Positions 9,382 through 43,786 of a DNA stretch of 64,000 nucleotides are shown in pieces. Origin of the DNA: Nanobdellota archaeon (lineage in GTDB: Archaea; Nanobdellota; Nanobdellia; Pacearchaeales; GW2011-AR1). The stretch lies in NCBI GenBank assembly GCA_038044745.1, contig JBBSZK010000002.1:35790-99789 (forward strand). The letters are read 5' to 3'. Position 1 is the stretch's first letter. The number at the start of each line of letters is the position of its first letter. Under the pieces are notes generated by a model. The model saw nothing but the letters and a program-made list of their open reading frames with translations, ran no database searches and was not told the DNA's origin. A program made the translations under genes and the position numbers.

Positions 9382-9693
9382 CTAGACGTCAGCCATTTCA
9401 GACTTAATCTTAGAAACCTTACCAAGACGCTCAGAAACCCGATCGATATCCGTCGATAATTTCTTTTTCTTCTCGCCAAGCTTCGCTTCCTTCTCCATGA
9501 GAGAAGCAATTTTCTGCTCAAGTTCTCGTTCAAGTTCTCGATCAACATCAATAGCCATAGAAACCTGCTTGAGTTCATCCTGCAACCTATTTTTATCACG
9601 CTTAAGTGCCTTTATTTGAACTTCTAAATCCTTAAAAGCCGTGGCCAAAAGAGAAGACGAGGAAGGCAAAACACCCTTCTTTTTTAACTTCAT
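9382..9693 (-). CDS. coiled-coil protein (103 aa), last gene of the surface-protein operon
   Basis: Heptad-rich sequence LEVQIKALKRDKNRLQDELKQ...ELERELEQKIASLMEKEAKL. Co-directional with and 23 nt downstream of the 9716..10726 gene. Confidence 0.4.
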   Translation of the reverse strand: MKLKKKGVLPSSSSLLATAFKDLEVQIKALKRDKNRLQDELKQVSMAIDVDRELERELEQKIASLMEKEAKLGEKKKKLSTDIDRVSERLGKVSKIKSEMADV

Positions 9694-9715
9694 CAGGCAA
9701 CAACGACGCTGGTGT

Positions 9716-10726
9716 TTATAAACGTTTCTTTAAACGCCTATCGAGAGCATCAAGTTTAGCACGCGTAGTCTTGTAGGTGGAAGAAGTGATATACCTCTTC
9801 TTATACGCCTCGATAAGAAGCTGCCGTTGATACATCAATTTTCGATGAGCTCTACGACCATCTTGTCCGCTACGTGCCTGCTTAAGTTGATCGTCCCAAT
9901 AAGTCGCGCTCGTGACCATACGTCTGCGCCACAAATAATTGATAACTAAAAAGCTTACAAGTAAAATCCCAATAACAACTAAGGCATAATAAAATGAAGC
10001 GTTGTTGACAAGGGGTGGAGAGAGCGAAACATTGTCCGTGCGTACAAAAGTTGTCGCCGTTCCATGCGACGTTCCCGCTACAATCTCAACTGCAAGTATA
10101 AGCGGACCGTCTGAAATAGATTCCGGCAAAGGGAGTGCGGGCGAAAGCTCAAGAGTGTTCTTGACGTCGACGGATTCAACAGTATATGCAATACGAGTAC
10201 CATCAAGAGCATACACCGAAGAGCGAAGTGTAGCTATAGGATGCAAAGAGCGCAAATTATAAAGTGTAATCTGGGGTATAAAAACGTCGCCTGCACGCAG
10301 TTCAGAATAAATCGGCAATTCTCGTATTGACGCGTCAAAAAGAGGAGATTTACTTTGCACTTCAAGAACGACCGGAATCGAAACCGTCATAAATCCCTCT
10401 GAAATATCAACCGAACCAACATAGATACCAGGAGAAAGAGAATCAAACCCTAACGAGAGACGCATCGAGATACTCTGACCGGTATCAAGGAAAAAGGAAG
10501 AACGATCAACACTAAAAAAGGAGTTTAGTGAATGAGCTGCAACAGAAAAAACAGTAGGCGCGCCCCTATTAAAAATAGATACTTCGCTCGACGCGAGTTC
10601 ACCAGGCTCTACGGTAATAGACACAAGCGGTTTATTAACTTCAAAAGTAGTTTCTTCGGAATCAGCCGAAACCAAGCCAGTTACAGAGATAAAGATAACA
10701 AACATAACCAAATGAATACCCCTCAT
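9716..10726 (-). CDS. surface protein: signal peptide, CARDB-like domain, TM helix and ~70-aa basic coiled-coil cytoplasmic tail
   Basis: MRGIHLVMFVIFISVTGLVSADS signal peptide. SSEVSIFNRGAPTVFSVAAHS is CARDB-like. TM segment YYALVVIGILLVSFLVINYLWRRR is followed by a basic tail. Confidence 0.6.
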   Translation of the reverse strand: MRGIHLVMFVIFISVTGLVSADSEETTFEVNKPLVSITVEPGELASSEVSIFNRGAPTVFSVAAHSLNSFFSVDRSSFFLDTGQSISMRLSLGFDSLSPGIYVGSVDISEGFMTVSIPVVLEVQSKSPLFDASIRELPIYSELRAGDVFIPQITLYNLRSLHPIATLRSSVYALDGTRIAYTVESVDVKNTLELSPALPLPESISDGPLILAVEIVAGTSHGTATTFVRTDNVSLSPPLVNNASFYYALVVIGILLVSFLVINYLWRRRMVTSATYWDDQLKQARSGQDGRRAHRKLMYQRQLLIEAYKKRYITSSTYKTTRAKLDALDRRLKKRL

Positions 10727-11748
10727 GCTGCCCTCCGATTACCTAATCCTTGCGACCCTCTTAATTGTTTCGCCTTACGATACGTTCTAAACGAATAAAA
10801 CAAGATAAGCAAGGATAACACAAGCAAAGCAATCAAAGCAATCAGCGAATAGTCTAACGCGGTTGTAGAAACGCTGAAGTACGCACTCGCAGTCGCAAAT
10901 CCCTGTGGATACACAATCTCTACCCCAACTAAATAATCTCCCTCTTTCAAACTCCTCGTATCAAACTCCTTCAGGTAACTCTTGCTACGAAGCACCCTAA
11001 ACGTCTCAGTTTCGGTAAAGAGCGTAACTCCATCGAAGTCTTTAATCGTATATGTCGCGGTAACGTCGGTATCCTCTGCAGGCCCGACTTGTTGAAGAGA
11101 AATGAATGCCTTAAGAACCTTGCCAAGACGAAACACCTTCATGGACTCGGGTACCGTAAGTGAAACGTCGAACAGCGCATTAGCACTATGTACGTTGAGA
11201 AGCAAAATAGCATCTTTTCGCTCGCCTGCCGCGCTAAAGACAACTCTTCCCCCATAAATGCCGCCCTCGGGAGCCCGAATAGTCAACGTAACCTGTCCCG
11301 AGGCACCCGGCTCGAGTGTAAGGCTCGAGCTATCCAGCGAAACAAACGAAGCAACACCCGTGAGTGAAACGGCAATAGTAAGTGATGCGCGCCCCGTATT
11401 GCGTATAGTAATAACACGTTCTTCGAGCGCACCCGCAACAATCCCGATATTCAATTCTTCAGGATCGACAGTAAAAAGTGCAGCAGGAACACTGGCTGCA
11501 CTTCCGCCACCGCTGCTGCTGCCTCCTCCCGATGGCCCTCCTGAATCGCCTGAATCATTAGTAGCATTTGAAGGCGGAGCAGTGATAGTGAGTGAAAACG
11601 TTCCGTCTGAACTCGCTTGTGCAGAAAGTGGAAGAGACCAAAAATCAGAGCTGAAAAACAAAAAAAAGGTAAATGCGTTACACACAAACGCGAGCATGAC
11701 AAACGCCAGAACGACTGATTGGTAACGCATAATATAAAGAGGAAGCAA
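10723..11748 (-). CDS. surface protein: signal peptide, Gly/Ser linker, CARDB-like domains and C-terminal TM + basic tail
   Basis: ERVITIRNTGRASLTIAVSL is CARDB-like. C-terminus LIALIALLVLSLLILFYSFRTYRKAKQLRG. 4-nt overlap with the downstream gene. Confidence 0.6.
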   Translation of the reverse strand: MLPLYIMRYQSVVLAFVMLAFVCNAFTFFLFFSSDFWSLPLSAQASSDGTFSLTITAPPSNATNDSGDSGGPSGGGSSSGGGSAASVPAALFTVDPEELNIGIVAGALEERVITIRNTGRASLTIAVSLTGVASFVSLDSSSLTLEPGASGQVTLTIRAPEGGIYGGRVVFSAAGERKDAILLLNVHSANALFDVSLTVPESMKVFRLGKVLKAFISLQQVGPAEDTDVTATYTIKDFDGVTLFTETETFRVLRSKSYLKEFDTRSLKEGDYLVGVEIVYPQGFATASAYFSVSTTALDYSLIALIALLVLSLLILFYSFRTYRKAKQLRGSQGLGNRRAA

Positions 11749-11760
11749 CGCTATAAAAGA

Positions 11761-12222
11761 TTATCTCCTAAATTCAAACTTAAGCGAACCCTCGTAAGAA
11801 CCAAAGGCTGTACCTGAAGGCACAAGAAGGGTAAATGACGCATTGTATCGAGAAAGTGGCTCAATTGTAAATGAAGGCTCAGCCGTAGTAAGATAAAGAT
11901 TCAAGGAAGGATCAATCAACACAGTAACACCCACCGGAAACGAATACGGATTATCGATAAAAACAACACGCGAGGAAACCGTATCGGGCAATACACGACC
12001 AAAAGTAAGTGAAGAAGTGTTTATCTCTAACCCTACCGAATCTCCTACCATAAACCGTACATCGAGTGCCCGCACATCAAACGGTCGAGAAAAAATGATA
12101 AACAAAGAAACGAACACAATTAAAAGACAAAAGAACGCAATCGCGAGTATCAAAGAAGAAGGCCTATGTATCACGATACTCTTCTCCGAGGAATAGCACG
12201 TTTCCTGCGCACAAAGAACCAT
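11761..12222 (-). CDS. membrane-anchored hypothetical protein (N-terminal TM); start uncertain because it overlaps the upstream gene
   Basis: Hydrophobic segment LILAIAFFCLLIVFVSLFIIF. Same operon and orientation. Confidence 0.4.
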   Translation of the reverse strand: MVLCAQETCYSSEKSIVIHRPSSLILAIAFFCLLIVFVSLFIIFSRPFDVRALDVRFMVGDSVGLEINTSSLTFGRVLPDTVSSRVVFIDNPYSFPVGVTVLIDPSLNLYLTTAEPSFTIEPLSRYNASFTLLVPSGTAFGSYEGSLKFEFRR

Positions 12223-13265
12223 GCCGCCAAGAGCGCGACAACAACGATTGCAATCACGAGAGCTACAACGGCAACATTAATCTTTTTCACAAATGCAAGA
12301 CTAACCGCCTGCTCGCTCGATAAGCCCTCATAGAAGAGCATAACACGAGCCTCAAAGGTATCATTAACAATCGAACTTGTATCGAAATAACCTTCGAGCG
12401 TCGCTCGACCAAAGGGACTAAGCACAACAGTAGGCGTCAAAAAAGAAATATCGCTTCCAAGAACAGTTACATTCGCGAAAACATTTTCAATAGGAGCATT
12501 CCACGCGCTTTCAATATCCAAGTTAATTTTATTAATAGAATCCCGCTCAAAAAAGCGAGTATAATTAAGAATGTGCACCTCAAGTGTACCAATACGAAAA
12601 GCCTTTTCGTCAATCGCATCAGCCTCACCATACACTGCATGGGCAACCACACGATAACTTCCCGGCGAATAGAGGGTGCTGTCAATCTCTGCATGAAACA
12701 CGGCAGAATCAGTAGAACCAAGTAACGATTGAGCAACCCCCAATCGTTCAACAAATGCCTCGCCACGATAAATATCAAGGTAGACATCAAACGAAGTTGT
12801 CTCTTTTCCACGATTAATAACTGAAATGTCAAAGGGAACGACTTCTCCCTTATTTACCGAAGACGTAGCGAGCGAAACTTCAAGATACCGCCCCGGATAC
12901 GGAACATAAATGAGAATCACTCCTCGAGGTTCTCCCGAAATCCCCAATCCGAGAAGGGAAGAGGTTTCAGCACCCGTGACAAACACTCGATGGATGCCCG
13001 GCACATCCGCCTCATCGGGAAGCGTTACATATACAATGACGGTACCTGTGCTTGAAGACGTTGAATCACTCAGCTGCGCATACTGCGCGAAATCTCCCTG
13101 CAAAGAGAAAGAAAATCGAGCTTCAGGGTTAGAGGAAAGAAAAGTAAACGGAAAGGCTGCCTTCAAGCCAGGTTCGTAATTAACTTCGTATCGTGCCGGA
13201 GTAAGTCCCGCGACAACAAGAGGGGCAACAAGCACAACAAAAAAGAACAAAAACAATCTCCTCAT
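12171..13265 (-). CDS. CARDB-like surface protein, paralog of the 14276..15514 gene (signal peptide, C-terminal TM + Arg-rich tail)
   Basis: Shared blocks with the paralog: AGLTPARYEVNYEPG vs LGITPGRTTLQFEPG, LIYVPYPGRYLEV vs HVLVPYPGKYAEP, SPGSYRVVAHAVYGE vs APGSYRAVVNVLYDE. C-terminus VAVVALVIAIVVVALLAAWFFVRRKRAIPRRRVS. Confidence 0.65.
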   Translation of the reverse strand: MRRLFLFFFVVLVAPLVVAGLTPARYEVNYEPGLKAAFPFTFLSSNPEARFSFSLQGDFAQYAQLSDSTSSSTGTVIVYVTLPDEADVPGIHRVFVTGAETSSLLGLGISGEPRGVILIYVPYPGRYLEVSLATSSVNKGEVVPFDISVINRGKETTSFDVYLDIYRGEAFVERLGVAQSLLGSTDSAVFHAEIDSTLYSPGSYRVVAHAVYGEADAIDEKAFRIGTLEVHILNYTRFFERDSINKINLDIESAWNAPIENVFANVTVLGSDISFLTPTVVLSPFGRATLEGYFDTSSIVNDTFEARVMLFYEGLSSEQAVSLAFVKKINVAVVALVIAIVVVALLAAWFFVRRKRAIPRRRVS

Positions 13266-13299
13266 ACGAGTAGAAAGAAAAAATAGTTTTTATACGTTT

Positions 13300-14004
13300 C
13301 TACGAGCACGGGCCCGGAGCTTGGCAATAAATCATATGGAAGTACGACGACAGATTACCCTGCAAAGAGTCATACGGCACCCTCAAACGAACGCCGATGC
13401 GCAATGAATCAGATCCGTCCGAAAATCTGAAAACGCCACATATGGGCGTGCCAGGATTAGTGGTATTAACATCAAAGAATAATCCGAGCGGAATTAACCC
13501 GCTCACACTAGGATTGACAGAGGAGTTATCCGTACCGCCCGTCGTATTAAGACAGCTACCTGAGTCTATATTTGAAACATTATACTCAAATCGAGGATTA
13601 GTGCCTCCCAACAATTGCGTAGAATTCTTACTTGTATAAAGCAGGATAGTTGCATTTACATTACCGATGTTCTCAAGAACAAACCCGCTCGAACCCGTAG
13701 CAGACCCAATTGACCACGAACCGCCAACCGCATTGATTGTACCACCCGCCTGATTAGTTGTTAAGTTTGCTTCCGACTGTCCCTCAGTCACGTATCCCGA
13801 ACCCCATTGAACAGAGCTATTCGTAAAATTAATGCTTAACAAAGTCGCAACCGTCAAGTTAAGCGTGGCGTTTGCCTGTGACGCAAACCCTGTCACCCAC
13901 GTATCACGAAACGCAGAAAGCGAATAATAACTAAACCCTGCTGAAAAAAGCGCAGAAAACGCCGCAAGCGCCGCAACTAAAACAAGCAATTGCTCGCCTT
14001 TCAT
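13300..14004 (-). CDS. secreted/anchored Asn-Ser/Thr-rich surface protein (sequon-dense)
   Basis: N-terminal hydrophobic segment LLVLVAALAAFSALFSAGF, then many N-x-S/T sequons (NATLNLT, NFTNSS, NLTTN, NATILLYTSKNST...). Confidence 0.5.
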   Translation of the reverse strand: MKGEQLLVLVAALAAFSALFSAGFSYYSLSAFRDTWVTGFASQANATLNLTVATLLSINFTNSSVQWGSGYVTEGQSEANLTTNQAGGTINAVGGSWSIGSATGSSGFVLENIGNVNATILLYTSKNSTQLLGGTNPRFEYNVSNIDSGSCLNTTGGTDNSSVNPSVSGLIPLGLFFDVNTTNPGTPICGVFRFSDGSDSLRIGVRLRVPYDSLQGNLSSYFHMIYCQAPGPCS

Positions 14005-14219
14005 GAACCTGCACCCGGACGAGGAAGTACCTGAAGCCCAACATCACTCGAAGGGTCTCCAACCGCAAGACCCGCGCCCGTCTGACGAACCGGCACAAAG
14101 TCCGACTTAAAACTATCACGTACGCTTAAAGAAACCATAACCGAAAGAACCGAAAACAACACAGCCACCGCCAACAACAACACAATAACCTTTGTCGAAA
14201 CACCCTGTTCAAGCGCCAT
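14001..14219 (-). CDS. small membrane protein (72 aa from MALEQGVSTKVIVLLLAVAVLF...)
   Basis: Internal Met gives a start just downstream of the previous gene's stop (14276). Single TM. The longer 105-aa track ORF would overlap its neighbour. Confidence 0.35.
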   Translation of the reverse strand: MALEQGVSTKVIVLLLAVAVLFSVLSVMVSLSVRDSFKSDFVPVRQTGAGLAVGDPSSDVGLQVLPRPGAGS

Positions 14220-14275
14220 CTTTTTACAAAAGAAACACTGAGAGGCACTATATAAAGATTTCGGGCAATAAACGA

Positions 14276-15514
14276 TTATTTCCGAGCAGAAAACTTTTTT
14301 CGTAACACTAAGAACCAAAGCACGTTAATAAGTACAAGTACGCCAATAATCGTCGCAAGCACAATAACAAGCGTATTAGACTCTCCCGAATCACCCGAAT
14401 CTTTCGAAATAACGTATCCCAACCCTATAACCGAGATATCATTAGAAGAAACTTTCAGCTTAAAGTCCTGCTGGTCCGAATGTTCGTCATATCTCAAAAA
14501 GACAGACGAATCATACGTTCCTTCCTTAACACCTTCCGTATCCCAGAACGTTACAAGCAACGCTTTCCCAAGCGCAGGCACCTCATACGTCGCAGACTTG
14601 AAGTTAGCCATAATCTCCCGTTGCGCATTATACACGACCATATCCGCATATGCCCCTGAAATCGGCTGACTCCACTTATTCTCAATTAAGAGCTCAAACT
14701 TAGCAATCTCCCCAAGACTAAAATCATTAACCTCGACATTCTGCAGCTCGAGGACGCGTTTACCCACTTCAAACGTTTTTTCAACCTTCGTAACGCCTTC
14801 GTCATAGAGCACGTTTACCACCGCCCGATACGAACCAGGAGCAACTGCAGAAGCATCCCACTCAGCAACAAGTTCAGCACGAGCACCACTTGCGAGCGAA
14901 ACTTCATTCGAACTAAGCGTAATAATTTTTTCATTAAGCGCAGTATATACTTCTACGGTGGCCCGCACCCTAACAAGATCAAGTTCGCCCCGACTTACCG
15001 TGGGAATTAAGAACGTAACTTTTCCCGAATCATCAGGACCTGCAATATTCAAATCGGGTTCGGCATATTTCCCTGGATACGGAACAAGCACATGCAACTG
15101 TGTCGTCACTCCGACCGCAGCACCGACAAACGTTGCACCTGTCGCACCTCGTTTTGGCAACTTTATCACTATTATTTCAGCTGTGCGCGTACCGGGCGTG
15201 AGCGTCGAAGGTGCCCTGAAAACATAACTTAATTTCTTTTCAGATTCGCTTGCCGCAACATCCCACGAAGTAGTCGAAAGTGCAATCGTCTGATTTAACT
15301 CCCCCTGCACTAAGAGTACCAATTGCATATCTTCCTGCTCTGAATTGATAACTGTAAACTCAACGGTTTGTTCAACCCCGGGTTCAAACTGCAACGTTGT
15401 ACGCCCGGGAGTAATTCCCAATGCACTAACCTGCATCACCACAAGAACCACCATCCCTGCGAACATAAACAAACGTTTCAGGTCAATCATGTTGCCCTCC
15501 AATGAAAGAATCAC
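14276..15514 (-). CDS. CARDB-like surface protein (signal peptide, C-terminal TM + basic tail), paralog of 12171..13265
   Basis: Signal peptide MFAGMVVLVVMQVSALG. CARDB-like strands (VSRGELDLVRVRATVEVYT). C-terminus LVIVLATIIGVLVLINVLWFLVLRKKFSARK. Confidence 0.65.
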   Translation of the reverse strand: MILSLEGNMIDLKRLFMFAGMVVLVVMQVSALGITPGRTTLQFEPGVEQTVEFTVINSEQEDMQLVLLVQGELNQTIALSTTSWDVAASESEKKLSYVFRAPSTLTPGTRTAEIIVIKLPKRGATGATFVGAAVGVTTQLHVLVPYPGKYAEPDLNIAGPDDSGKVTFLIPTVSRGELDLVRVRATVEVYTALNEKIITLSSNEVSLASGARAELVAEWDASAVAPGSYRAVVNVLYDEGVTKVEKTFEVGKRVLELQNVEVNDFSLGEIAKFELLIENKWSQPISGAYADMVVYNAQREIMANFKSATYEVPALGKALLVTFWDTEGVKEGTYDSSVFLRYDEHSDQQDFKLKVSSNDISVIGLGYVISKDSGDSGESNTLVIVLATIIGVLVLINVLWFLVLRKKFSARK

Positions 15515-15977
15515 CTGCTTGTTCTAATGACTCGTCAGGAGCGAGAATTATTTTTCCCGTTAAAACGCCCTTATTGTACACGTCCACGTTCAAACGAGAA
15601 GTTCCCGCATTAGTAATGTCATAGCCCGCATCAGACACGCGCACCTGCAAATCAACAACCGATTCAACCGTAATCTGTCTAATCTCGCTCGGTAAAACTC
15701 CTTCGACCATCCAGTAATAAGTGCCCGGCTCGAGAGTAATGAGTGCTTTATCACGCACCGAAATACGTTGCGGCGACGTGAAGTCAACCGTGTCATCAAT
15801 TAACAAGAAGTCTCCACGTTCAAACGAGAAGAGCACGGCACCCGTAGCAATAACTCCATTCGAAGGAGTATTCAACAACGGAGTCGCGTAAAAGAAAGCC
15901 CAGACGACAAGCGCAAGCGTTCCCACTACTAAAAGTGCATCAACCCCGTACACTATTTTTTTACGCATATTATTCAC
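15483..15977 (-). CDS. N-terminally anchored small surface protein
   Basis: TM segment ALLVVGTLALVVWAFFYATPLL. 8-nt overlap with the giant gene's stop. Confidence 0.5.
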   Translation of the reverse strand: MNNMRKKIVYGVDALLVVGTLALVVWAFFYATPLLNTPSNGVIATGAVLFSFERGDFLLIDDTVDFTSPQRISVRDKALITLEPGTYYWMVEGVLPSEIRQITVESVVDLQVRVSDAGYDITNAGTSRLNVDVYNKGVLTGKIILAPDESLEQAGDSFIGGQHD

Positions 15978-18900
15978 TCAAACTCGCAACGAGCGTGACG
16001 TTGGCCCTCCGTACCCCGGGCGGTTCATTAATAGGAACCGTAACATTAATATCAATTTCGGCCGTATCGGTAGTATCGGTATAATTAAATGACGAAAAAC
16101 AAAGCAGAGGCGATTCAGGCAAACCATCGCTCAGAGGTATCGCCGCATAAGCGGTTTGCGACTGCGCCCAGATAAACGAACCGAGCTCAGAGCTATAATT
16201 AGCCGCTTTAAACTGGAAGTAATTCGAGCCGCCTGACTGTGTTTCCCAAAGGTGCGTTGAGGTAATCGTGACATTAACGAACGAATTACCATCATTCTCA
16301 AGCAAAAACGGTAGCGGAGCATCATCAGAGGTATCATTCCATTGTAAGTAATCAAGTGAGCCAAAGTCAATAGAATTATTCAAAAGCGTAATGCTTACCA
16401 CCGAAGAGATATTGATGCGCCAAGGTACCGTCCAGCCACTCATGCCATCGCTATCGTTAACGCGTACAGTCCAATTATAATAGTCAAGATTATCATACAA
16501 ACAGCGCAAGTCGGGCACGACAGCATAGCTCACATTGGTGCCTCCCAAAAGGCCTGTCACCGTCGCCGAATAAAAATGAGAAATATCTGTGCAGGCGCTT
16601 GTCGCTACCAAGCTCACGTTCAACTGCCACGTTGCACCTTCGTCATCTGCGTCGAATACCGTAAAGTTAAGCACAGGAGTCCTATTCGTCGTGCGGCTTG
16701 CATCAGGGGGAGCAAGATGCGTAATGTTCGGAATTGTATTCAAAACAGTCACATTATACGTTGCATTAAACGGGCCCGTATACAAAAATCCATCAAATAC
16801 ACGCACGCCACACGTCCAATTATGTCCCTTCGTTGTATTACGATCGTCCAACGTAGCTATGAAAACGCTGGCATTTGCATAACTCGTGTTGTAATCTGAC
16901 ACCAAATGAAGAACTGAATTATTGTACCAAAATACACTCGCGTTCAAGAACGTATTCGCATCGGGGTCACTTAAAGTAGTGTAACAGTTCAAGTCCTGTT
17001 CGGTTTTATTCGACCCAGAAGTCGAATTGATATGAACAAGAGTCGCTGCCGGAGCACGATTTGACACAACACCAATACTATAATTGCTCCATCGCGATAC
17101 ATTAAAGATAACCGTGCCTGCATTCAAATCGGTGAAGTTGTAACAATCAACGCATCCCGCAACATCATCCTTAAGAATAACCGGATTAACGAAATTAGTA
17201 GAAATACCGGTAAGCGTTACGTTTGCAGTCGTATTTAATCCCGAATTAACCTCGTTTCGAACGGTAGCGCTATTGTTTACAATACGCACATCCGCACTTA
17301 AATTAATACCCGAACCATTAATATAATCAAGAAACTTAATCTTTCCAAATAAGCTCGATTCAAACGTGAAATAGCGCCCGCCCGTATCAGCAAACGAATA
17401 ATTTGCGAAATAACTATCTTCGAAGCGAATATTCTGCAGATCAGTCCCTGAAGCAATAAACTGAAGGTCAGGATAGGAGCTATTGGTACCAATCACGCTC
17501 AGATTCGTGAAATTCATACGATCAAGCGCCGCACTAATTCCGTTCACATTGAAAACGAGAGCCGGGCCCGTAGAGTTATGCACAAATATGTTCGTGAAGT
17601 TATGGTCGCGAAGCGCACCCGTTGTGGGAAGGAAATGAAGAGAAATATTGTTTCTTACAAACGTCAAGTTCCTAAATATACCTACTTTAGCAGCCGTAGA
17701 AATGCGAAGACCATAGAAAGTACTGGAATTAATATACGAATTTTCAAACCATACATCCTGGGCGCTAATTAAGATACCTGCCGTATTATTATGCAGACTA
17801 AGTCGCGAAAGATTGGTTCCTGACGAAAGTGAATCTATCGAAACACCGAGTGCACTTTGCGAAACAACAACATCAGAGACAATCGGACGCGTCGCAGCCG
17901 TTATAGAGATACCCGTAGATGCCGAAGTTATAGAAAGATTTGAGATAAACGCGTTCGCAATATAACTGCCCGTACCTATAAGAGATACCCCTGTAGTAGT
18001 ATTAGTAAATACCGAATTAGTGACGTTGATTTGATTAGACCGAATGACAACCCGCGCACCCACATCGTTATCCTTAAACCATAATGTATCTAAAACAGTC
18101 ACGTTTGCCCATTCAACCAAGAGTCCTATGTCTCCCGAAATAAGCGTCGTGTTAAACACGCGAGCATTATTTGAATGATTCAAATGGATTCCCCATCCAA
18201 ACGGACCTTCGGACGAAAGACTGATATTTACCCCAGAAATCGTAGTGTTATATTCATCACTGAAAATGACTGTATAATTATACGTAGAATTAACCATCCA
18301 ATACCCGCTACCGAGAATGCTGATATTGGGCGCGTCAACACTGATGCACGGAGTAACACCACTCGGCACAAGCGTGCCAATCTGGGTATAAACAGAATTA
18401 GCCTGACTTAAGTTCACACAGATGTCAAGAGGCATAGTTAGCGTACGCAGCGTCCAGTTCGTTGCGTTCATCGCGTAGTTGCTTGAGTTATCACCCGCAT
18501 AATAATTCCAAACGTAAGTATCGTTTCGAGGAAGCACAAACGAGAGATTAACAATACCCTGGCTCACGTTCAAACTCGAGAAATTTGTACCTATCAAACT
18601 CGTAGCATTCCAGATATACAGCGTTGCGTTTGAAACGTTTATGTTATCAGAAATGTTCGCCGCAAAATAGACAATCGGAAAGCTCGCAGAACTGTCATTG
18701 GAAGGATGCATGAGAGAGACGACGGGAAAAGTTATATCAGCTAGATTAATACCATACCCCTCGTAAGTAAGGTTTCCTATCAGAATAGGAGTATAAAACG
18801 AGTTAGTTCCCGCATAGTGAAACAAAGAGACATTCGCGGAAGTCAAATTTCCAGTAAGCGGATAACCCGTAACGACATAGGCACTCCCATTATAAGAAAA

Positions 18901-21900
18901 ATTCTGTTCGGCGGCTCCATTCACCGAAAGGCTAAAATTACTATTCAAAAGTAGTTCGGCATTCTGAAGACTAACATTGACCGTTGTATTTGTTCCAAAA
19001 TCAACGGAGGTAAAGCGTTGTTCGCCCCGAGAAAAATAACGAACAGAAGCATTAGAAAAAATTTGAGAAACTTCTGAATCAGTAAGAGAGACATTAAATA
19101 TCATTACTTCATCAATGAGACCATTAAAAGCGCTAGACCCCTCTGAACCGAAGAGAAGAGGATTATTATTAAGCTTGAGCGCCTTGCTCCCTGAAACCAG
19201 AACGCGAGCTACGGGACTACCGTCCCGGTAAAGTGTAACTCCTCCGGTAGTATTATAAGTACAAAAAAAATTATACCATTGATTTTTTGACATAACCAAA
19301 GAATCAGTCGCAGCAAAATTGGTACCATCGGCGCGCTTCACAAGACAGCGCATGTTCATGCTAGCATTAGGTGTAAGCGCAAAGGTAAAATCAGAACCAG
19401 TTCCTTTAATCATGACGCGCCCAGACGACGTGCCAGAACCTCCCGACCAATTAATCCAAGCTCCCCAACTCAAATTTAAAGGTAAGTCAAAAAGACTTTC
19501 GTTGAAAGTTACATTAACAAGATCGTTCGTGCCATCAAAAAATGCGCTTGCTCCAAGAAAACCGAGCCTCGCAAACGCACCACGTTGATAAGAACCATCA
19601 CTACTATGAGAAGAAAAGTCAAAAGCAGTAATGTTATCATCTCTATCGAAAGGCCAATACCCCCTAAGGTCAGAGTAAGGAGCAGAGTTGCCAACCGTCA
19701 GATGAGTAAACAACGTTTCTTGAGTCACGTTTTGGTCTGTTGAACTACTCGCAACAAGCGTGGGGTCAACAATATGGTCAAACATCATGCTTCCATTAAG
19801 CACATGCAAATCAAATACATCTTGACTATAATTTTCAGGAAGCTCGGTCAAATAAATAGTATAATAACGCTCATCAGTCACATCATCAAACACGGCAAGC
19901 GTCGTATTCTGCGATGTCTCATACACCTTCACGAAAGGAGTGCCATTCAGCACACGCGGATAGAGCGTGATATCATTCGCCCGCGTCAAATTGCGTTCAA
20001 ACGTCACGCGCACGTAATGTCCGTCCGGAATCGGCTCACTCCAATTCCCATCGAGTTCCTTCACAGACTCGTACACATCGGAAACAAAAGTGCGATTCTC
20101 ATCAAGGTGGTCTGCTTTTGTAATAACAATAATCTCATAAGTCTGATTAGAAAAGTGTGGCACAACCCACGCCACCGAATCAATAAATCCATCCCCATCA
20201 CTATCCGTCGCTTCAAACGGAACCAAAACCTGTGCAAGAGAAGCAACCGTGACATTTTCTGAAACGGGGCGGACCGAAATCCACGCCGAATCGGATGTGT
20301 TGTCCACCTCAGCGTCTGAATTGTCAACAAATTCTGCAACAACGGCGCCCGTGAGTGAAGCCCCCTCAGAAGATTCATTCAACATCGAATCTTCCGACTC
20401 CGAAATAGTCGAAGAGTCGTTAGTTTCAGCAAGTGATTCATCTACAAGAATTTCATCAGAAAAAACATCAGACGCCGTTGCAAGATGAGCACTGTCAATT
20501 TCATCAACAAGAGCCATATCAGCTACCTCATCTTGCAACTTAAGGCTACTATAATTAACGAAGGTATCGGGAGTAAGCCATGCCAACTGAATAGTAGAGG
20601 GCTTAGTAATCCGTAACTCGTTCGGAAGAGAAGCAATCACGACCACATCAGAATAATTAAGCGCCTCAGACGCAACAAGCGTTATCGTCTTTCCTCGTGC
20701 CTGCGAAATTTCTACTGCCGCAGGAGGTGCGGTATAGTATTCGACCGTATATGCCGTAGCCCCTGCATCAAGCACGACCTCGGAAGAAGACTCGTATGAG
20801 AACGCCTCTCCCGCTCCGAGAGAAGCCGACTGATTAGAGAGTTCAGACGTAGCGTTATCAGAAGCAACCGATTCAACAGAAATATCACTCGTAACCTGTC
20901 CCGTACCTGCAACAACGGCCCCTGCAATCCAAGATGCAAAAGAAGGACGCGATTCAATAAGCGCCGTAATCTGTCCCGTAAGCGGAACAGAAAGAGTGAC
21001 GTTATCTGCCTGAACAGAGTCTCCCATCGAATCAAAGGCAGTAACACTCACGTTCTCTGCGCCAGCAGGAAGCGGCAACACGAAAGAAGAACCATCGGGA
21101 ACGCTTACGTTCGTCACCCAGTACACCGGTTGACCCAGCACAACTTTAGTACGGCGAGTTGTAAATGAAAACGTCGAGGTCCGGCTCACGACCGAAAATT
21201 CATTACTTTCGACCGAGTCGCCAGCAGACGTAAACGCCCGTATGCGCGCAGTGCGCACACCGACAAAGGGCTGCGCCGCACGCACATCCATAAAAGATCC
21301 TTCAAACGAAACAACCATATCCGAAGCAATAAGTTCGTAAGCATCAGCGCCAATAAAATACGTGCTCAAATCAAGGCGCGCACTGTAGTTCTCATCAAGA
21401 GAAAGAGAAGGAATAGTCTGCAATAGCATCAACGTGTCATTAGCAATAGTCTCATTCACAATTGTTTCATTCACTAACGTCTCGTTAAACACATCAAGGA
21501 CTTCTACAATTGTTTCGTTCTCTTCCGTAGAAGCAGCAAGCGTCAGCTCCGAACTATCGTCTACCAAGGTTACCCCTCCAAAAACAGCGGTAAGACTCAG
21601 ACGTGTAGCGTTACGTACTACAAGGTCGAACAAATCGAGAGGAATGCGCACCCGATATCGGCTCTCTCCCCGATAATCCTGCCCAAATCCTGAAAGGTTC
21701 ACTGAATAAGAACTGGACACGCGCACCGACGTCCCTTCCTGTTCAACAAGCACAAAAGAATCAGAAAGTTCTTCGCCAGCAGACCCACGCACACTTCCCG
21801 AAACTAACTGAGCCGTATACCCTTTAGAGAGCCCATACTCAAACGAATCCATTCGCGAGGCGGTACCCATAATAATATCGTTCTCATCCGAAATAACCCC

Positions 21901-22773
21901 TCCCGTTATAGTCCCCCCGCGTTCGCTTGAGCCGCCATCAGAACCAGAATCGTCCGTACCCTCTTCAGAATCAGTACTCTCGCTACCTGACTCATCATCG
22001 TCCACTTCCTTCTTCTCTTCTTTTTCTTCCTTCTCCTGTTTTTCTTCCTTCTTCTTTTCTTCGGCATCTGCAGGTGTATCGCTTCCTTCGACCCCTTGTT
22101 CAGAACCACTATCAGAGCCCTCTTCAACAGAGATAACTTCACCACCGTCTTCTAAATCAGAAGAAGAAACCTCCTCATCTACTCTCGTATCAGTTGCATC
22201 GCCTTCGTCAGAACCTGCATCGCCAGAACCACCATCAGAAGAATCCTCTTCCATCGTGCGTGTTGCGCGCAATTCAAACGTAACGTCGGGATACATAACG
22301 TTCGTTCCAGCAAGACCATATCCGGTACCGGTACCTTCCAAGTCAAATCCCTCCGCATAGAAATCACCCTCAATCGATGCAATCGTGCTTCCCGCCAAAA
22401 GTTCATGCAAGGAATACGTTTTTTCAACATCACCCAAGCGAGCCGTTATAGAAGTTGTAGCAGGAAGCAACTCGCCTTCATTAAAGATAAGTGTAAACAC
22501 ACCTTGCACTCGTTCCCCAGGAAGGTATGTACCGGAACTCTCGAATAAAACGCGTCCCGTAATAGAACGCTCGTAACTTACACCTAACCAGATAGAAAGC
22601 AAAACGAGAAAAGAGATCCCAAGAAAAAGAGAAACCCCGTAAGTTCTCTTACGTTCACCGACGACAGAACTACCTAGATACGTAGTAACAATTTTTCCGT
22701 TGACACGTTCAGTTTTGTAATAATACGGCCCAAATCGTTTGCCATCTTTGTAGGTATATTTCTTGTGCACCAC
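15970..22773 (-). CDS. giant surface protein (2267 aa): 45-aa N-terminal leader + TM, acidic low-complexity region, parallel beta-helix (PbH1-like) repeats, LamG/ConA-like domain, very high N-x-S/T density
   Basis: TM segment GVSLFLGISFLVLLSIWLGV. Acidic stretch EEKKKEEKQEKEEKEEKKEVDDDESGSESTD. LamG-like block LRGYWPFDRDDN...FDGTNDLVNV...FNGLIDEVMIFNVSLTDSEVSQIF. Beta-helix repeats NISILGSGYWMVNSTYNYT...NLSITSASTGISITAA...NNTAGILISAQDVWFENSYINSS. Confidence 0.75.
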   Translation of the reverse strand: MVHKKYTYKDGKRFGPYYYKTERVNGKIVTTYLGSSVVGERKRTYGVSLFLGISFLVLLSIWLGVSYERSITGRVLFESSGTYLPGERVQGVFTLIFNEGELLPATTSITARLGDVEKTYSLHELLAGSTIASIEGDFYAEGFDLEGTGTGYGLAGTNVMYPDVTFELRATRTMEEDSSDGGSGDAGSDEGDATDTRVDEEVSSSDLEDGGEVISVEEGSDSGSEQGVEGSDTPADAEEKKKEEKQEKEEKEEKKEVDDDESGSESTDSEEGTDDSGSDGGSSERGGTITGGVISDENDIIMGTASRMDSFEYGLSKGYTAQLVSGSVRGSAGEELSDSFVLVEQEGTSVRVSSSYSVNLSGFGQDYRGESRYRVRIPLDLFDLVVRNATRLSLTAVFGGVTLVDDSSELTLAASTEENETIVEVLDVFNETLVNETIVNETIANDTLMLLQTIPSLSLDENYSARLDLSTYFIGADAYELIASDMVVSFEGSFMDVRAAQPFVGVRTARIRAFTSAGDSVESNEFSVVSRTSTFSFTTRRTKVVLGQPVYWVTNVSVPDGSSFVLPLPAGAENVSVTAFDSMGDSVQADNVTLSVPLTGQITALIESRPSFASWIAGAVVAGTGQVTSDISVESVASDNATSELSNQSASLGAGEAFSYESSSEVVLDAGATAYTVEYYTAPPAAVEISQARGKTITLVASEALNYSDVVVIASLPNELRITKPSTIQLAWLTPDTFVNYSSLKLQDEVADMALVDEIDSAHLATASDVFSDEILVDESLAETNDSSTISESEDSMLNESSEGASLTGAVVAEFVDNSDAEVDNTSDSAWISVRPVSENVTVASLAQVLVPFEATDSDGDGFIDSVAWVVPHFSNQTYEIIVITKADHLDENRTFVSDVYESVKELDGNWSEPIPDGHYVRVTFERNLTRANDITLYPRVLNGTPFVKVYETSQNTTLAVFDDVTDERYYTIYLTELPENYSQDVFDLHVLNGSMMFDHIVDPTLVASSSTDQNVTQETLFTHLTVGNSAPYSDLRGYWPFDRDDNITAFDFSSHSSDGSYQRGAFARLGFLGASAFFDGTNDLVNVTFNESLFDLPLNLSWGAWINWSGGSGTSSGRVMIKGTGSDFTFALTPNASMNMRCLVKRADGTNFAATDSLVMSKNQWYNFFCTYNTTGGVTLYRDGSPVARVLVSGSKALKLNNNPLLFGSEGSSAFNGLIDEVMIFNVSLTDSEVSQIFSNASVRYFSRGEQRFTSVDFGTNTTVNVSLQNAELLLNSNFSLSVNGAAEQNFSYNGSAYVVTGYPLTGNLTSANVSLFHYAGTNSFYTPILIGNLTYEGYGINLADITFPVVSLMHPSNDSSASFPIVYFAANISDNINVSNATLYIWNATSLIGTNFSSLNVSQGIVNLSFVLPRNDTYVWNYYAGDNSSNYAMNATNWTLRTLTMPLDICVNLSQANSVYTQIGTLVPSGVTPCISVDAPNISILGSGYWMVNSTYNYTVIFSDEYNTTISGVNISLSSEGPFGWGIHLNHSNNARVFNTTLISGDIGLLVEWANVTVLDTLWFKDNDVGARVVIRSNQINVTNSVFTNTTTGVSLIGTGSYIANAFISNLSITSASTGISITAATRPIVSDVVVSQSALGVSIDSLSSGTNLSRLSLHNNTAGILISAQDVWFENSYINSSTFYGLRISTAAKVGIFRNLTFVRNNISLHFLPTTGALRDHNFTNIFVHNSTGPALVFNVNGISAALDRMNFTNLSVIGTNSSYPDLQFIASGTDLQNIRFEDSYFANYSFADTGGRYFTFESSLFGKIKFLDYINGSGINLSADVRIVNNSATVRNEVNSGLNTTANVTLTGISTNFVNPVILKDDVAGCVDCYNFTDLNAGTVIFNVSRWSNYSIGVVSNRAPAATLVHINSTSGSNKTEQDLNCYTTLSDPDANTFLNASVFWYNNSVLHLVSDYNTSYANASVFIATLDDRNTTKGHNWTCGVRVFDGFLYTGPFNATYNVTVLNTIPNITHLAPPDASRTTNRTPVLNFTVFDADDEGATWQLNVSLVATSACTDISHFYSATVTGLLGGTNVSYAVVPDLRCLYDNLDYYNWTVRVNDSDGMSGWTVPWRINISSVVSITLLNNSIDFGSLDYLQWNDTSDDAPLPFLLENDGNSFVNVTITSTHLWETQSGGSNYFQFKAANYSSELGSFIWAQSQTAYAAIPLSDGLPESPLLCFSSFNYTDTTDTAEIDINVTVPINEPPGVRRANVTLVASLSE

Positions 22774-24793: not shown

Positions 24794-26662
24794 TTAACAA
24801 ACCGTAGCAGTATCCTGAGAAAGTTTGACAAGGCAAGAAACGTTGTAACCTGCATCAAGAAGATACTTAAGATTAACGATGACGTGTTTGTTCTGCTGAA
24901 GCAGTGAAACCGACGTATTCCATCGCCACGCATTAAAGCACGCGTCATCACCCGTTGCACAAGTTCCCTCAGGAGGGCTACGAACGAGGTGCATCGTCGT
25001 TCCACCTGCGGCATTTAGTTCCGATTCTTTAAAGAACCGATCTTGAGGATCACTTTCAGTAAATTGCCAACGAATCTCATCTGAAATCACACTATAGCCT
25101 AACGACCAGTTTTGTCTGCGCGGAGGAACTGCCTCAAGATAGGGCTCAACGCCCAAATCACGCATGATCGCAAAATTAACAGAAATTGCCGTTGAATTCT
25201 CAGCCATGTGACCTCCCGACCAATCATACCCCACGGCGATAAACGAACCATCCATCAACTCACCTTGGTAATAATCAAAGTTTTCAGGATAGCATTGCTC
25301 GGGCACAGGAACGTAAAGCTTATCGGTAGCTTTCTCCTCACATCGAGGCATACCTAAATAGCCGAGCAACTGAATCCCATGAGCCTGTGAATACGATGTA
25401 AGCGGAGTATAATCCGTCGTAGAAGGCGAAATATTGCTTTCGGCGATAGTCAATGCCTCGAATAAGAAACTCGAATACGAATAATCGCCAATGCCATCCC
25501 CTGGGAGCCAGACGCGATACTGAGACCAACCACCCCCAATCTGAAAAAAGACCACGTCAAACGCATCATTTCCTACAACCGTGCGGACGGGGTCAATCCA
25601 ATTGGTAATAACCGAATTCCATCCCTGCTGATGATTCCACACAGCATTACTAATTGTTCCTTGTGACACATTCGAGCTTGAACCCCCTACAAGTTGGAAC
25701 AAAGAAAGACGTTTTGGTTTTCTAAAAGTCCAATCTCCCTTTTCATCAACATCCGTCGAAGAATCACATCCATAATCGCCCCCAAAGTCAACAAGCCCAT
25801 CCCCATCATTGTCAACGTCATCGTTGCAGGCTAAATTGCCATAGGTGTTTTCATCGTTATCATTCGCGTCCGTGCATCCCGAATCACCAGGGGTGCTGCC
25901 ATCCATACATATCGAATCAACAAGATCACAGAATCCATCATCATCATTATCAATTCCATCCGAACACGCCGTCATAACCGGAGGACTCTCTCCATTCATG
26001 TACGGATTGTCACAATCAGCAACATCATACCCGTCAATTAATCCATCAAAATCATCATCCTTCTGATTAGAACAGGTCGTACTTCCTTCGAGGTCTTCAG
26101 TTGGATTATCGGGATTTGTTCCACACGCAGGATCTCCGAGCCGCGAACCATCGGTACACGCACCTCCTTCAGCATCACACCATCCATCATCATCATTATC
26201 AATTCCATCCCCACATACTGGTGCGCTATTCCACCCTTCAACAAGAGTACATACGCGTGGGCTTCCTGTAAGCCCGCACGTTTCTCCGTCGACGAGAGCA
26301 GCCACATCAACCTTCGAGGGCGTAGAAATATCCCCAAAAATATAAGTCAACGCTTCAAGCGTATCGGGCAACGGAGTATTCTTATCAAGAAGTGCACTCC
26401 CCGTATTCGTTTCAAACGCAAATCGTAACCCAGTAATCTCCCCCTCCCCCACACCACGACTTACACGCACGCGCGCCATTGTCGCATTATACTCGCACGA
26501 CTCAAGCGTAAACACAAGACCCAAGCACGTTTGCGTCTGACCGCCATCATCAACGGAAGAGACGGTTGAACGCAGAGTCGTCCAAACCACCGTCACTGCT
26601 CCCAAGGAGAGCACAATAATGAACAGGGTGATAATTATCGGCGACATCCCTCTTTTTAACAT
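24794..26662 (-). CDS. archaeal type IV pilin-like protein (class III signal peptide, Pilin_N/DUF1628-like) with large extracellular domain containing Asp-rich Ca-binding (TSP3-like) repeats
   Basis: N-terminus MLKRGMSPIIITLFIIVLSLGAVTVVW matches the archaeal pilin consensus (K/R)G-(V/M)SPVI + hydrophobic stretch. Repeats CGDGIDNDDDGWCD, CSDGIDNDDDGFCD, CNDDVDNDGDGLVD. Confidence 0.7.
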   Translation of the reverse strand: MLKRGMSPIIITLFIIVLSLGAVTVVWTTLRSTVSSVDDGGQTQTCLGLVFTLESCEYNATMARVRVSRGVGEGEITGLRFAFETNTGSALLDKNTPLPDTLEALTYIFGDISTPSKVDVAALVDGETCGLTGSPRVCTLVEGWNSAPVCGDGIDNDDDGWCDAEGGACTDGSRLGDPACGTNPDNPTEDLEGSTTCSNQKDDDFDGLIDGYDVADCDNPYMNGESPPVMTACSDGIDNDDDGFCDLVDSICMDGSTPGDSGCTDANDNDENTYGNLACNDDVDNDGDGLVDFGGDYGCDSSTDVDEKGDWTFRKPKRLSLFQLVGGSSSNVSQGTISNAVWNHQQGWNSVITNWIDPVRTVVGNDAFDVVFFQIGGGWSQYRVWLPGDGIGDYSYSSFLFEALTIAESNISPSTTDYTPLTSYSQAHGIQLLGYLGMPRCEEKATDKLYVPVPEQCYPENFDYYQGELMDGSFIAVGYDWSGGHMAENSTAISVNFAIMRDLGVEPYLEAVPPRRQNWSLGYSVISDEIRWQFTESDPQDRFFKESELNAAGGTTMHLVRSPPEGTCATGDDACFNAWRWNTSVSLLQQNKHVIVNLKYLLDAGYNVSCLVKLSQDTATVC

Positions 26663-27989: not shown

Positions 27990-28113
27990 GAGCCTATAGC
28001 TCAGCCCGGTTTAGAGCACCGCTCTTATAAGATACGCGCTCGTGAGGGCGCCATTTTCATCGAAAAAATTCGAAGAAAGGCGGGGGTCCCCGGTTCAAAT
28101 CCGGGTAGGCTCA
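27990..28113 (+). tRNA. tRNA-Ile (anticodon UAU) with ~48-nt intron (28030..28077) at the canonical 37/38 position
   Basis: Hand fold: acceptor GAGCCUA/UAGGCUC, D stem GCUC/GAGC, anticodon stem CCGCU/GGCGG, loop CUUAUAA, variable loop GGGUC, T arm CCCGG-UUCAAAU-CCGGG, discriminator A. No encoded CCA. Confidence 0.65.
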
Positions 28114-28241: not shown

Positions 28242-29174
28242 TCACTTAATACAAAATATCAACGAACACTCATTCGCCTTATCTTTAAAAAAACGCACAT
28301 GTGAAAAATACATTTTACAAAACTTTTCCAATTCTTGAGCATAATATTTGTATTGAATAGCAACCACTATTTCATCACCTGCCTTAAATCTGATGCGTTT
28401 GCCCTCGCACACGAACACTTTATCGTGTTTGATATGGTAAAAGAACTCAAGACGACCGTTAGCAAATCGCGCATCATAACGCACCTCGGACGAGGAAAAA
28501 CCAAGGCCGGCCATGAGCGAAAAAAACCATTCGTTGAATATAGGCTGTCGATATTTTTCAATACCTGCAAACCGCTTTCCCGTACGAATTCCATTCCCAA
28601 CAATCAGCAGGCCCCCATGAGCCATGGCACGACTCATAGAAAAAAGAAATTGATTAATCTCAAAACTAGCCAATGTACTACCAAGAAGAAGGTATGCGGC
28701 GCGAGCATCAGACCGAGCCCTTATTCGCCTGACCAGTTTATCGGGAGATGAAAAGTCCTCGGTGTAAGAAGGCCCTACGGAAAACGTTCGCGACGTTCGC
28801 GTCCGTAACCGTGTTTTAGCAAGATGAATCAAAGGAAGGCTGACATCAACCGGAAAATATTTTGCCTTAATTGTGGAAGGAAGCGACGTTACAAAAACCT
28901 CTGCTTTTTTTCCATCCCCGCACCCAAAATCGACAACATCAAGTTTTCCTCGAGCACCATCAAAAAAACGAGGCACATGAAAACGAATCAAATCAAGTTC
29001 TCTATCGACTACATTAAGTTTATACCTCGGCCAACACTCCAAGTTAAGAAATCCTTGAGCAAGCTGGGGAGTTATGTAAAGCAGTTTATGATTAGCAATA
29101 TTCCACACACGTTTGCCACGCTCTACAGAGTACCCGTTCTTAACTAACTCTTTCAAAACGAGTTGTTCGAACAT
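28242..29174 (-). CDS. SAM-dependent methyltransferase, EgtD-like (Methyltransf_33-type histidine-specific methyltransferase family)
   Basis: Motif I VVDFGCGDGKKAEV. LLGSTLASFEINQ resembles the EgtD LGSTIGNF block. LLIVGNG is also present. Confidence 0.6.
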   Translation of the reverse strand: MFEQLVLKELVKNGYSVERGKRVWNIANHKLLYITPQLAQGFLNLECWPRYKLNVVDRELDLIRFHVPRFFDGARGKLDVVDFGCGDGKKAEVFVTSLPSTIKAKYFPVDVSLPLIHLAKTRLRTRTSRTFSVGPSYTEDFSSPDKLVRRIRARSDARAAYLLLGSTLASFEINQFLFSMSRAMAHGGLLIVGNGIRTGKRFAGIEKYRQPIFNEWFFSLMAGLGFSSSEVRYDARFANGRLEFFYHIKHDKVFVCEGKRIRFKAGDEIVVAIQYKYYAQELEKFCKMYFSHVRFFKDKANECSLIFCIK

Positions 29175-29218
29175 AGAAAAATCAGCAAAAACATCTATTT
29201 ATACGTTTGGAAAGATCG

Positions 29219-43358: not shown

Positions 43359-43786
43359 GCAGTAGAAGAAAAGAAACAATTAAACATGATGAAAGCCCTG
43401 TAAGAAAAATAGTACAAGACTCTAAAAGAGAAAAGTATAACAAATTTTTAAGCTTAAAGGCCGCCCTACATTATAAAGATGCTTATCTCGTTATGGAAGG
43501 AGATTGTGGAGGACAGATTTATTTAACTGTTCCAGTAAAATTTGTAAAATGTAATGAAAAAACCCTTAGAAGTCTTTTGAATGAAATAGATTCTTTGGCT
43601 TGGAAAGACCCAGAATGCGCAGGTTTTTATTTTGAAAGAAGACCTAAAGGAGAGATTCTTATAGGCGGTATGGGGGGAGGAAAGATTCAAGACGATCTAT
43701 GGGTGCATAAAGAACTTGAATATCTCAAGGAAAAAATAAGATTAATTTTGAAAGGAAAGGTTAACGCAGATGATTTGATAAAATGA
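43355..43786 (+). CDS. putative cognate immunity protein of the RHS toxin
   Basis: 143-aa ORF whose start overlaps the toxin stop (ATGA). This is the canonical position for polymorphic-toxin immunity genes. No known motif. Confidence 0.45.
   Translation: MSSRRKETIKHDESPVRKIVQDSKREKYNKFLSLKAALHYKDAYLVMEGDCGGQIYLTVPVKFVKCNEKTLRSLLNEIDSLAWKDPECAGFYFERRPKGEILIGGMGGGKIQDDLWVHKELEYLKEKIRLILKGKVNADDLIK

Follow-up and report, generated by a model that had tools for sequence, protein, structure and literature searches.

What is the basic, tyrosine-rich leader that precedes the single transmembrane (TM) segment of a giant surface protein in a Nanobdellota archaeon: a signal that is cut off during export, or a domain that stays in the cell? 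The window analyzed here is a 64,000-nucleotide stretch of contig JBBSZK010000002.1 (assembly GCA_038044745.1), and the gene in question lies on its reverse strand. The class of protein that it encodes is ordinary, a giant archaeal adhesin-like glycoprotein, but its N-terminal domain, predicted to be cytoplasmic, is apparently undescribed. We consider it likely that the protein has its N terminus inside and its C terminus outside the cell (N-in/C-out), is held in the membrane by its N-terminal anchor, is glycosylated, and forms an adhesive outer structure with membrane proteins encoded beside it; topology, glycosylation, and adhesion are each predicted from sequence and structural models.

The open reading frame (ORF) agrees with the original prediction in its extent and, letter for letter, in its N terminus. 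The GTG codon is the first possible start, with an in-frame stop seven codons earlier, and homologs have the same N terminus, reading MVHKK, or VVHKK and LVHKK where the start codon is GTG or TTG. Residues 1–46 include 11 Lys or Arg, 3 Asp or Glu, and 8 aromatic residues and are followed directly by the hydrophobic stretch VSLFLGISFLVLLSIW; this stretch and an AlphaFold 2 (AF2) helix at residues 45–69 bear out the single TM segment that had been proposed. The parts of the protein, all encoded on the minus strand, are as follows.

15970..22773 (-): whole ORF of the 2,267-residue giant surface protein, GTG start, stop codon included in the range
22672..22773 (-): leader domain, residues 1–34, MVHKKYTYKDGKRFGPYYYKTERVNGKIVTTYLG; three-stranded β-meander in the AF2 model, predicted to be cytoplasmic
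22636..22671 (-): basic linker, residues 35–46, SSVVGERKRTYG; length and sequence vary among relatives
22567..22635 (-): single TM helix, predicted signal anchor, residues 47–69; hydrophobic stretch and AF2 helix 45–69
22264..22560 (-): membrane-proximal β-sandwich module, residues 72–170; invariant alignment columns and AF2 β-sandwich at 75–169
21904..22257 (-): acidic and Ser/Gly low-complexity spacer, residues 173–290; 45 Asp or Glu in 118 residues
19714..21903 (-): β-rich ectodomain region, residues 291–1020; family-conserved blocks at about 300–450, 550–750, and 850–1000
19066..19512 (-): LamG/concanavalin A-like lectin domain, residues 1088–1236; Pfam PF13385
17830..18258 (-): NosD-type right-handed parallel β-helix (PbH1 repeats), core residues 1506–1648; Pfam PF05048
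15973..17076 (-): C-terminal family-conserved region, residues 1900–2267, three tandem FN3/Ig-like β-sandwiches; AF2 and Foldseek

The leader and its distribution

The relatives of the giant are hypothetical proteins of 1,400–3,500 residues from metagenome-assembled genomes (MAGs) of Pacearchaeota, Nanoarchaeota, or Woesearchaeota and are 29–49% identical to it outside the leader. These relatives, the leader loci described below, and an intron-containing tRNA in the window mark the source as a DPANN archaeon of Woesearchaeota/Pacearchaeota type. The leader itself, with the consensus MVHKKYTYKDGKRFGPYYY(E/K)T(K/E)RVNGKIVTTYLG, is conserved better than any other part of the protein. It is found as MVHKKYTYKxGKRFGPYYYETKRVNGKIVTTYLG in 20 of the 23 first-round homologs, which are about 80% identical to one another in this segment, so the leader that the original prediction singled out is present in the orthologs and is the most conserved segment of the family. 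Residues Gly11, Lys12, Gly15, Pro16, Tyr17, Tyr19, Arg23, and Tyr32 are invariant.

When a 36-column profile of the leader was compared with 1.84 billion representative proteins, 1,456 clusters were matched at E ≤ 1e-3 and 192 at E ≤ 1e-10, and the match was always at the extreme N terminus, in residues 1–35. Among the best 150 of the 1,456 clusters, a basic linker of 2–82 residues (median 8) lies between leader and TM segment; 13 have no TM segment within the first 400 residues, and these are 43–190 residues long and apparently truncated ORFs. When one genome per species was scanned, 118 leader loci were confirmed. Of these, 80 were retrieved; nearly all belong to Woesearchaeota, Pacearchaeota, or Nanoarchaeota and a few to Parvarchaeota and Aenigmatarchaeota, and in some genomes there are two leader loci. 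A TM segment follows the leader in 76 of these 80, and most of the proteins exceed 1,000 residues. Word-indexed homolog searches returned five matches with residues 1–173 and, with the 46-residue leader alignment, only ORFs of 39–81 residues, apparently because of a length bias; the best 150 clusters and the 80 loci were therefore used as the sample for architecture.

Two observations concern the distribution. Complete ORFs of 40–80 residues that consist of the leader alone, or of leader and TM segment, are found on long contigs (P0166, P0167, P0201, P0099, L050, and L052) and could be frameshifted giant genes or genuine mini-proteins. Leader-bearing genes also occur on contigs binned as Omnitrophota and Methanosarcinales (L058 and L067), which are most likely mis-binned DPANN contigs.

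Across 27 loci, the first, second, and third codon positions of the leader have nucleotide identities of 0.85, 0.96, and 0.52, respectively. It follows that the leader, with free third positions and conserved first and second positions, is translated and subject to strong purifying selection. In the AlphaFold model, built from a 37-sequence alignment, residues 2–34 form a three-stranded antiparallel sheet (strands 2–9, 12–24, and 27–34) with predicted local distance difference test (pLDDT) values of 94–96, and the glycines of the turns and a ladder of tyrosines are the invariant residues. Because one sheet alone cannot enclose a core, the aromatic face of the modeled leader probably packs on a partner, on a second copy, or at the membrane interface. 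No Pfam or NCBIfam model covers the leader above threshold, and literature searches with the motif strings, with DUF6788, and for DPANN giants with such an N terminus returned nothing on it. The leader is thus apparently an undescribed, lineage-wide N-terminal domain.

Ectodomain modules and predicted glycosylation

BLAST coverage shows that the segments shared across the family are residues 1–170, about 300–450, about 550–750, 850–1000, and the last ∼470 residues; identity in relatives is 50–66% in residues 850–1000 and 40–50% in the last ∼470. The middle of the protein, with the LamG domain and the β-helix, is variable among relatives. The family therefore keeps its ends and exchanges central adhesin-like modules. 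Most leader-bearing giants have the same membrane-proximal module (TG..SLD, EGELIP.DS, G.FYAEG, and G.G.GYG), behind which stands a spacer that is acidic or rich in Ser; in the window protein the corresponding motifs in residues 72–170 are TG..., EGELLP, G.FYAEG, and G.G.GYG. In other proteins, unrelated ectodomains stand behind the same leader and TM segment.

The acidic repeat of the original prediction is a low-complexity acidic block rather than a true repeat array, with only a short EEK micro-repeat at 22005–22062 inside the spacer. Pfam has no match in the β-rich region (residues 291–1020, scanned as a segment). The LamG domain is recovered with E = 1.3e-19 (71.3 bits, gathering score 27.6) in the full-length scan and with E = 6e-21 when its segment was scanned by itself. 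Beyond this domain and a weak NosD match, full-length scans with Pfam and NCBIfam gave nothing, and segment scans were needed for the β-helix. Scanned separately, residues 1420–1830 match NosD PF05048 with E = 1.3e-6 (28.4 bits, cutoff 23.6), which puts the predicted PbH1 β-helix above the gathering score; PbH1 repeats are visible out to about residue 1800, and NCBIfam TIGR04247 matches the protein with E = 4e-4. The C-terminal 368 residues are modeled with a pLDDT of 92.4 as three tandem β-sandwiches whose best Foldseek matches are FN3 tandems (E = 5e-8). As modeled, they are a generic bead-like architecture. No C-terminal TM segment or sorting signal was found in the protein. Of the proposal that this is a surface filament or adhesin, the giant, modular, adhesin-like surface protein stands, with its LamG, β-helix, and FN3/Ig-like parts, but the pilin-like filament does not.

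The protein contains 113 N-x-S/T sequons (x not Pro), as compared with 34.7 ± 5.1 in whole-protein shuffles (z = 15) and 35.1 ± 5.1 when residues were shuffled within 50-residue blocks (maximum 50 in 500 shuffles). The reversed tripeptide S/T-x-N, a control for composition and codon bias, occurs 23 times. Sequon density is 4.98 per 100 residues, and 66% of the Asn residues are in sequons. In the 25 non-envelope ORFs of the window the density is 0.41 per 100 residues, 9% of Asn are in sequons, and forward and reversed motifs are balanced (35 and 33), so that the giant exceeds this background 12-fold. All 113 sequons are C-terminal of the TM segment, and residues 1–358 contain none. Of the 25 sequons in the C-terminal 368 residues, 16 are matched by a sequon in the same alignment column in at least 75% of 24 homologs, whose overall identity is about 45%. 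The enrichment over shuffles, reversed motif, and background, together with the positional conservation, indicates that the sequons are under selection, which is the signature expected of real N-glycosylation. The extreme sequon density noted in the original prediction is therefore far above both the composition-matched and the background level, and the pattern argues for a heavily N-glycosylated ectodomain, as had been proposed.

Anchor, cleaved signal, or nucleic acid-binding module

The original prediction left the leader as either a cytoplasmic anchor or an atypical class III signal. A location on the cytoplasmic side, in an N-in/C-out protein with an uncleaved signal anchor, fits the sequence data: the leader is basic (11 Lys or Arg against 3 Asp or Glu), is modeled as a folded domain, and is joined to the TM segment by a variable linker, and the positive-inside rule would place it in the cytoplasm. 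A class III (prepilin-type) signal would require a PibD/FlaK-type peptidase to cut at ...TYG|VSL and the product to join a pilus-like filament. The GVS tripeptide at the start of the TM segment is indeed present in the window protein, and the neighboring ORF at 24794–26662 begins with MLKRGMSPIIITLF, which is pilin-like by eye. However, among 148 relatives, none has G[VI]S at this place and only 4 have [KR][GA]x where the hydrophobic stretch starts, with the window protein having Tyr rather than Lys or Arg at position -2; the tripeptide is a chance feature of one sequence and not a pilin-like cleavage context. Nor does a linker of 2 to 82 residues suit such a signal, or a conserved domain confidently modeled as a folded 34-residue β-meander, or a globular multidomain body of 2,200 residues that is unlike any pilin, and no pilin or archaellin model was matched (Pfam to E = 10, NCBIfam to E = 1). 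With the motif unconserved, the spacing variable, and no such model matched, the class III signal was rejected, and we give it almost no weight. A second proposal keeps cleavage but changes the enzyme: leader and TM segment could be a long Sec signal peptide with a conserved extension like the ESPR of type V autotransporters or the KxYKxGKxW/YSIRK signals of giant glycoprotein adhesins in Gram-positive bacteria, cut near the Thr-Gly pair behind the TM segment, and the giant would then be held on the cell solely through its co-encoded membrane proteins, in the manner of a surface layer. This is unlikely, although it is the rival to which we give most weight. A conserved basic and aromatic N-region before a hydrophobic core, specifically on very large surface proteins, is what it predicts; the core YKDGKRF resembles by eye YKxGKxW, the motif of TIGR03715; the Thr-Gly is nearly invariant; and the products of the downstream genes p164, p412, and p364, which are translationally coupled, have TM anchors of their own. 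It is opposed by the residues before the Thr-Gly, which depart from the signal peptidase I preference for small residues at -3 and -1 (-3 is Leu, Phe, Ile, Pro, or Ser), by the lack of a match to the ESPR, YSIRK, and KxYKxGKxW models (Pfam E ≤ 10, NCBIfam E ≤ 1), and by the leader being modeled as a confidently folded domain and not a flexible n-region.

A third proposal accepts the cytoplasmic location and concerns function. The leader would be a nucleic acid-binding β-sheet module, kin to the DNA-binding hairpins of UBP, a nucleoid-associated protein of Sulfolobus, and to the DUF6788 "GPY" proteins, and the giant a membrane-tethered, ToxR-like link from surface contact to DNA or RNA. Three weak and partly independent matches point to one small fold: DUF6788 (E = 0.014 for the window leader and 8.8e-4 at best among 57 leaders, with 16 of 71 short leader ORFs having a precomputed PF20586 annotation), NCBIfam UBP (E = 0.038, profile positions 44–71), and a local Foldseek match to the UBP structures 9efe and 9eff (41 columns, 36% identity, probability 0.93), the only local match of the N-terminal model. 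The leader is also very basic and tyrosine-rich, and in the corresponding region of UBP a "stirrup" hairpin with Lys63, Lys67, and Lys69 contacts the DNA major groove (PMC12141716). All three matches are nevertheless below threshold, with 16 bits against a DUF6788 gathering score of 27.2, 14.3 against the UBP NF052683 equivalog cutoff of 90, and a Foldseek E value of 0.7 for an alignment that does not extend to the full saddle-shaped fold with its C-terminal strand swap. Only 4 of 57 leaders match DUF6788 at E ≤ 0.01. A search of PDB sequences with the leader profile, the full giant protein, p412, and p234 gave nothing significant and did not recover UBP, and comparison of the N-terminal model with PDB and BFVD by Foldseek yielded no significant match, most of the PDB matches being spurious ones to class II major histocompatibility complex proteins. 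Basic and aromatic β-hairpins are easily convergent, and a DNA-binding role for more than 1,000 giant adhesin-like proteins is without precedent. We regard this proposal as very improbable.

Several points weigh against an uncleaved, glycosylated anchor protein. The architecture statistics rest on the best 150 of the 1,456 clusters and on 80 genome loci, and many of the short database matches are contig fragments. Processing could take place at the near-invariant Thr-Gly just after the TM segment, where at least 90% of sequences have Gly73. Finally, no oligosaccharyltransferase gene and no ORF of AglB size was seen within the 64-kb window.

According to the N-in/C-out (type II) reading that we prefer, the first 34 residues would form a small, basic, tyrosine-rich three-stranded β-sheet that is kept in the cytoplasm, and the short basic linker and single TM helix would act as an uncleaved signal anchor. 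The remaining ∼2,200 residues would be exported, with, from the membrane outward, a β-sandwich, an acidic disordered spacer, β-rich modules, the LamG domain, the NosD β-helix, and three FN3-like domains at the distal end, and could carry up to 113 N-glycans. The giant is encoded by the first gene of a conserved coupled operon and would most likely form, with the smaller membrane proteins, an adhesive envelope structure that contacts the surroundings or a host. The leader may be a lineage-wide cytoplasmic "handle" common to many different giant membrane proteins, most likely binding a conserved cytoplasmic partner or itself; such binding would serve to direct or pace the entry of very long substrates into the membrane, to set their topology, or to gather them in clusters. 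A second giant in the window (43783–49521) has an ordinary Sec signal peptide, and therefore size alone does not require a leader.

The protein can be compared with four known systems. (i) Giant surface proteins rich in LamG and Ig domains are recognized as a feature of DPANN archaea. Like the "SPEARE"-type and LamG/PKD giants of nanohaloarchaea, it has a very large, acidic, modular ectodomain with Ig/FN3-like and LamG domains and belongs to tiny symbiotic archaea; the nanohaloarchaeal proteins are proposed to make host contact and differ greatly between strains, as the middle third of the window giant varies among relatives. Those proteins are described as having an ordinary Sec signal peptide and C-terminal TM segments together with a VirB4/TraG-like ATPase domain in the cytoplasm (PMC10266531), whereas the window giant has none of these and instead an N-terminal anchor and a 34-residue leader; the TraG-like ATPase at 51456–53702 is a separate ORF in an unrelated island, 29 kb from the giant. 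(ii) The bacterial extensions ESPR, of type V secretion, and YSIRK and KxYKxGKxW, of accessory-Sec serine-rich glycoproteins, are likewise short, conserved, basic and aromatic motifs upstream of a hydrophobic core in very long, often glycosylated proteins, but the archaeal leader is longer, is modeled as a folded sheet, has a variable linker to the TM segment, and matches none of their models. (iii) The leader shares with DUF6788 and UBP the β-hairpin pattern G-x-x-x-G-P-Y-x-Y ... G-K-x-x-x-x-Y-[LIV]-G, but those proteins are small and soluble and the leader is fused to a TM segment and a giant ectodomain. (iv) With the class III signals of archaeal type IV pilins and archaellins it shares a positive N-terminal segment, one hydrophobic helix, and a surface protein predicted to be glycosylated; it differs in being four to ten times longer than is typical, structured, and without a conserved cleavage motif, on a protein that is not pilin-like.

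The envelope operon, its surroundings, and significance

The genes on both sides of the giant and the features of a low-GC island further along the window are listed below.

9382..15977 (-): nine-gene downstream operon for membrane or secreted proteins (p164, p412, ∼p70, p234, p364, p153, p341, p336, and p103), with collinear orthologs in loci L001–L004
22948-24294 (-): secreted β-helix protein, 448 residues; Pfam Beta_helix
24340-24735 (-): small cytoplasmic HExxH metallopeptidase, 131 residues; Pfam PhageMetallopep, E = 4e-19
32902-34017: Shedu SduA defense gene, low-GC island
34080-38008: type III-like restriction-modification pair, low-GC island
41928-51071: RHS/Tc-toxin-like cluster, low-GC island
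43783-49521: second giant, RHS/Tc-like, 1,912 residues, low-GC island; FG-GAP, TcdB, and LamG, ordinary Sec signal peptide, 72 sequons
51456-53702: TraG/VirB4-like ATPase, low-GC island

The genes follow one another as YchF-like GTPase, (PF1765-like), HExxH metallopeptidase, (pilin-like and β-helix ORFs, both optional), giant, p164, p412, ∼p70, p234, p364, p153, p341, p336, p103, ..., Kae1, and this order recurs with true orthologs in the four other loci, which are from different MAGs. The locus has the appearance of a core envelope locus of the lineage, not of a mobile island of adhesins. The genes of the giant, p164, and p412 are 1 nucleotide apart or overlap by 8 nucleotides, a spacing by which they are predicted to be translationally coupled. 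All of the downstream proteins have a signal peptide or an N-terminal TM segment, and several have Ig-like domains with a C-terminal TM segment and a basic tail. Two paralog pairs, p412/p364 and p341/p336, share a signal peptide, an Ig-like body, a C-terminal TM segment, and a basic tail. None of the nine downstream proteins has a significant family match. One of them, p234 (13300–14004 on the minus strand, 234 residues), has an N-terminal hydrophobic segment and 12 sequons as compared with 4.5 expected and is weakly similar to the last FN3-like domain of the giant (E = 0.002, 26% identity over 126 residues). A donor-strand or pilin-like assembly between this domain and p234 was considered and set aside, the similarity being weak and the C-terminal model showing three ordinary FN3-like sandwiches.

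The HExxH metallopeptidase is upstream of the giant locus in all five loci examined and probably belongs to a housekeeping block with the YchF-like GTPase and PF1765-like genes. A role for it as the leader peptidase was considered but would be pure speculation; in the window, another ORF intervenes between it and the giant gene. The 622-residue ORF at 24794–26662 (minus strand), whose start was described above as class III-like by eye, has no Pfam support for this assignment; it contains acidic double-disulfide repeats (NF033662, E = 5e-5).

Elsewhere in the window, the region from about 32000 to 58000 has a GC content of 0.30–0.39, as compared with about 0.44 outside it, and is probably an integrated mobile element. 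A 124-nucleotide Rfam tRNA match at 27990–28113 (plus strand) was not called by ARAGORN and is consistent with an intron-containing archaeal tRNA. Two tandem paralogs of EgtD-like histidine-specific methyltransferases (Methyltransf_33) are encoded at 28242–30163 (minus strand), and the family is near the locus in L003 and L004 too. The 271-residue product of 8011–8826 (plus strand) combines an HTH_31 domain at its N terminus with a match to Sigma-70 region 4 at its C terminus (E = 1e-10), an unusual feature in an archaeon.

In DPANN archaea, which live attached to other cells, the contact is thought to be made by giant surface proteins. The leader marks membrane proteins, most of them giant, in at least 1,456 clusters from Woesearchaeota, Pacearchaeota, and neighboring lineages; it provides a sequence tag with which such proteins can be found in metagenomes and a handle for pull-downs of its partner, and the defined envelope operon gives something to seek in cryo-tomograms. 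For uncultivated archaea, the family is also a strong case, by prediction, of N-glycosylation that is dense and conserved in position. If the leader were a nucleic acid-binding module, adhesin contact would be coupled directly to DNA or RNA, as a contact sensor or as a chromosome or mRNA tether, an arrangement undescribed for archaeal surface proteins. Should the leader turn out to be a sorting signal, archaea would have in it a counterpart of the bacterial ESPR and accessory-Sec type signals of giant adhesins.

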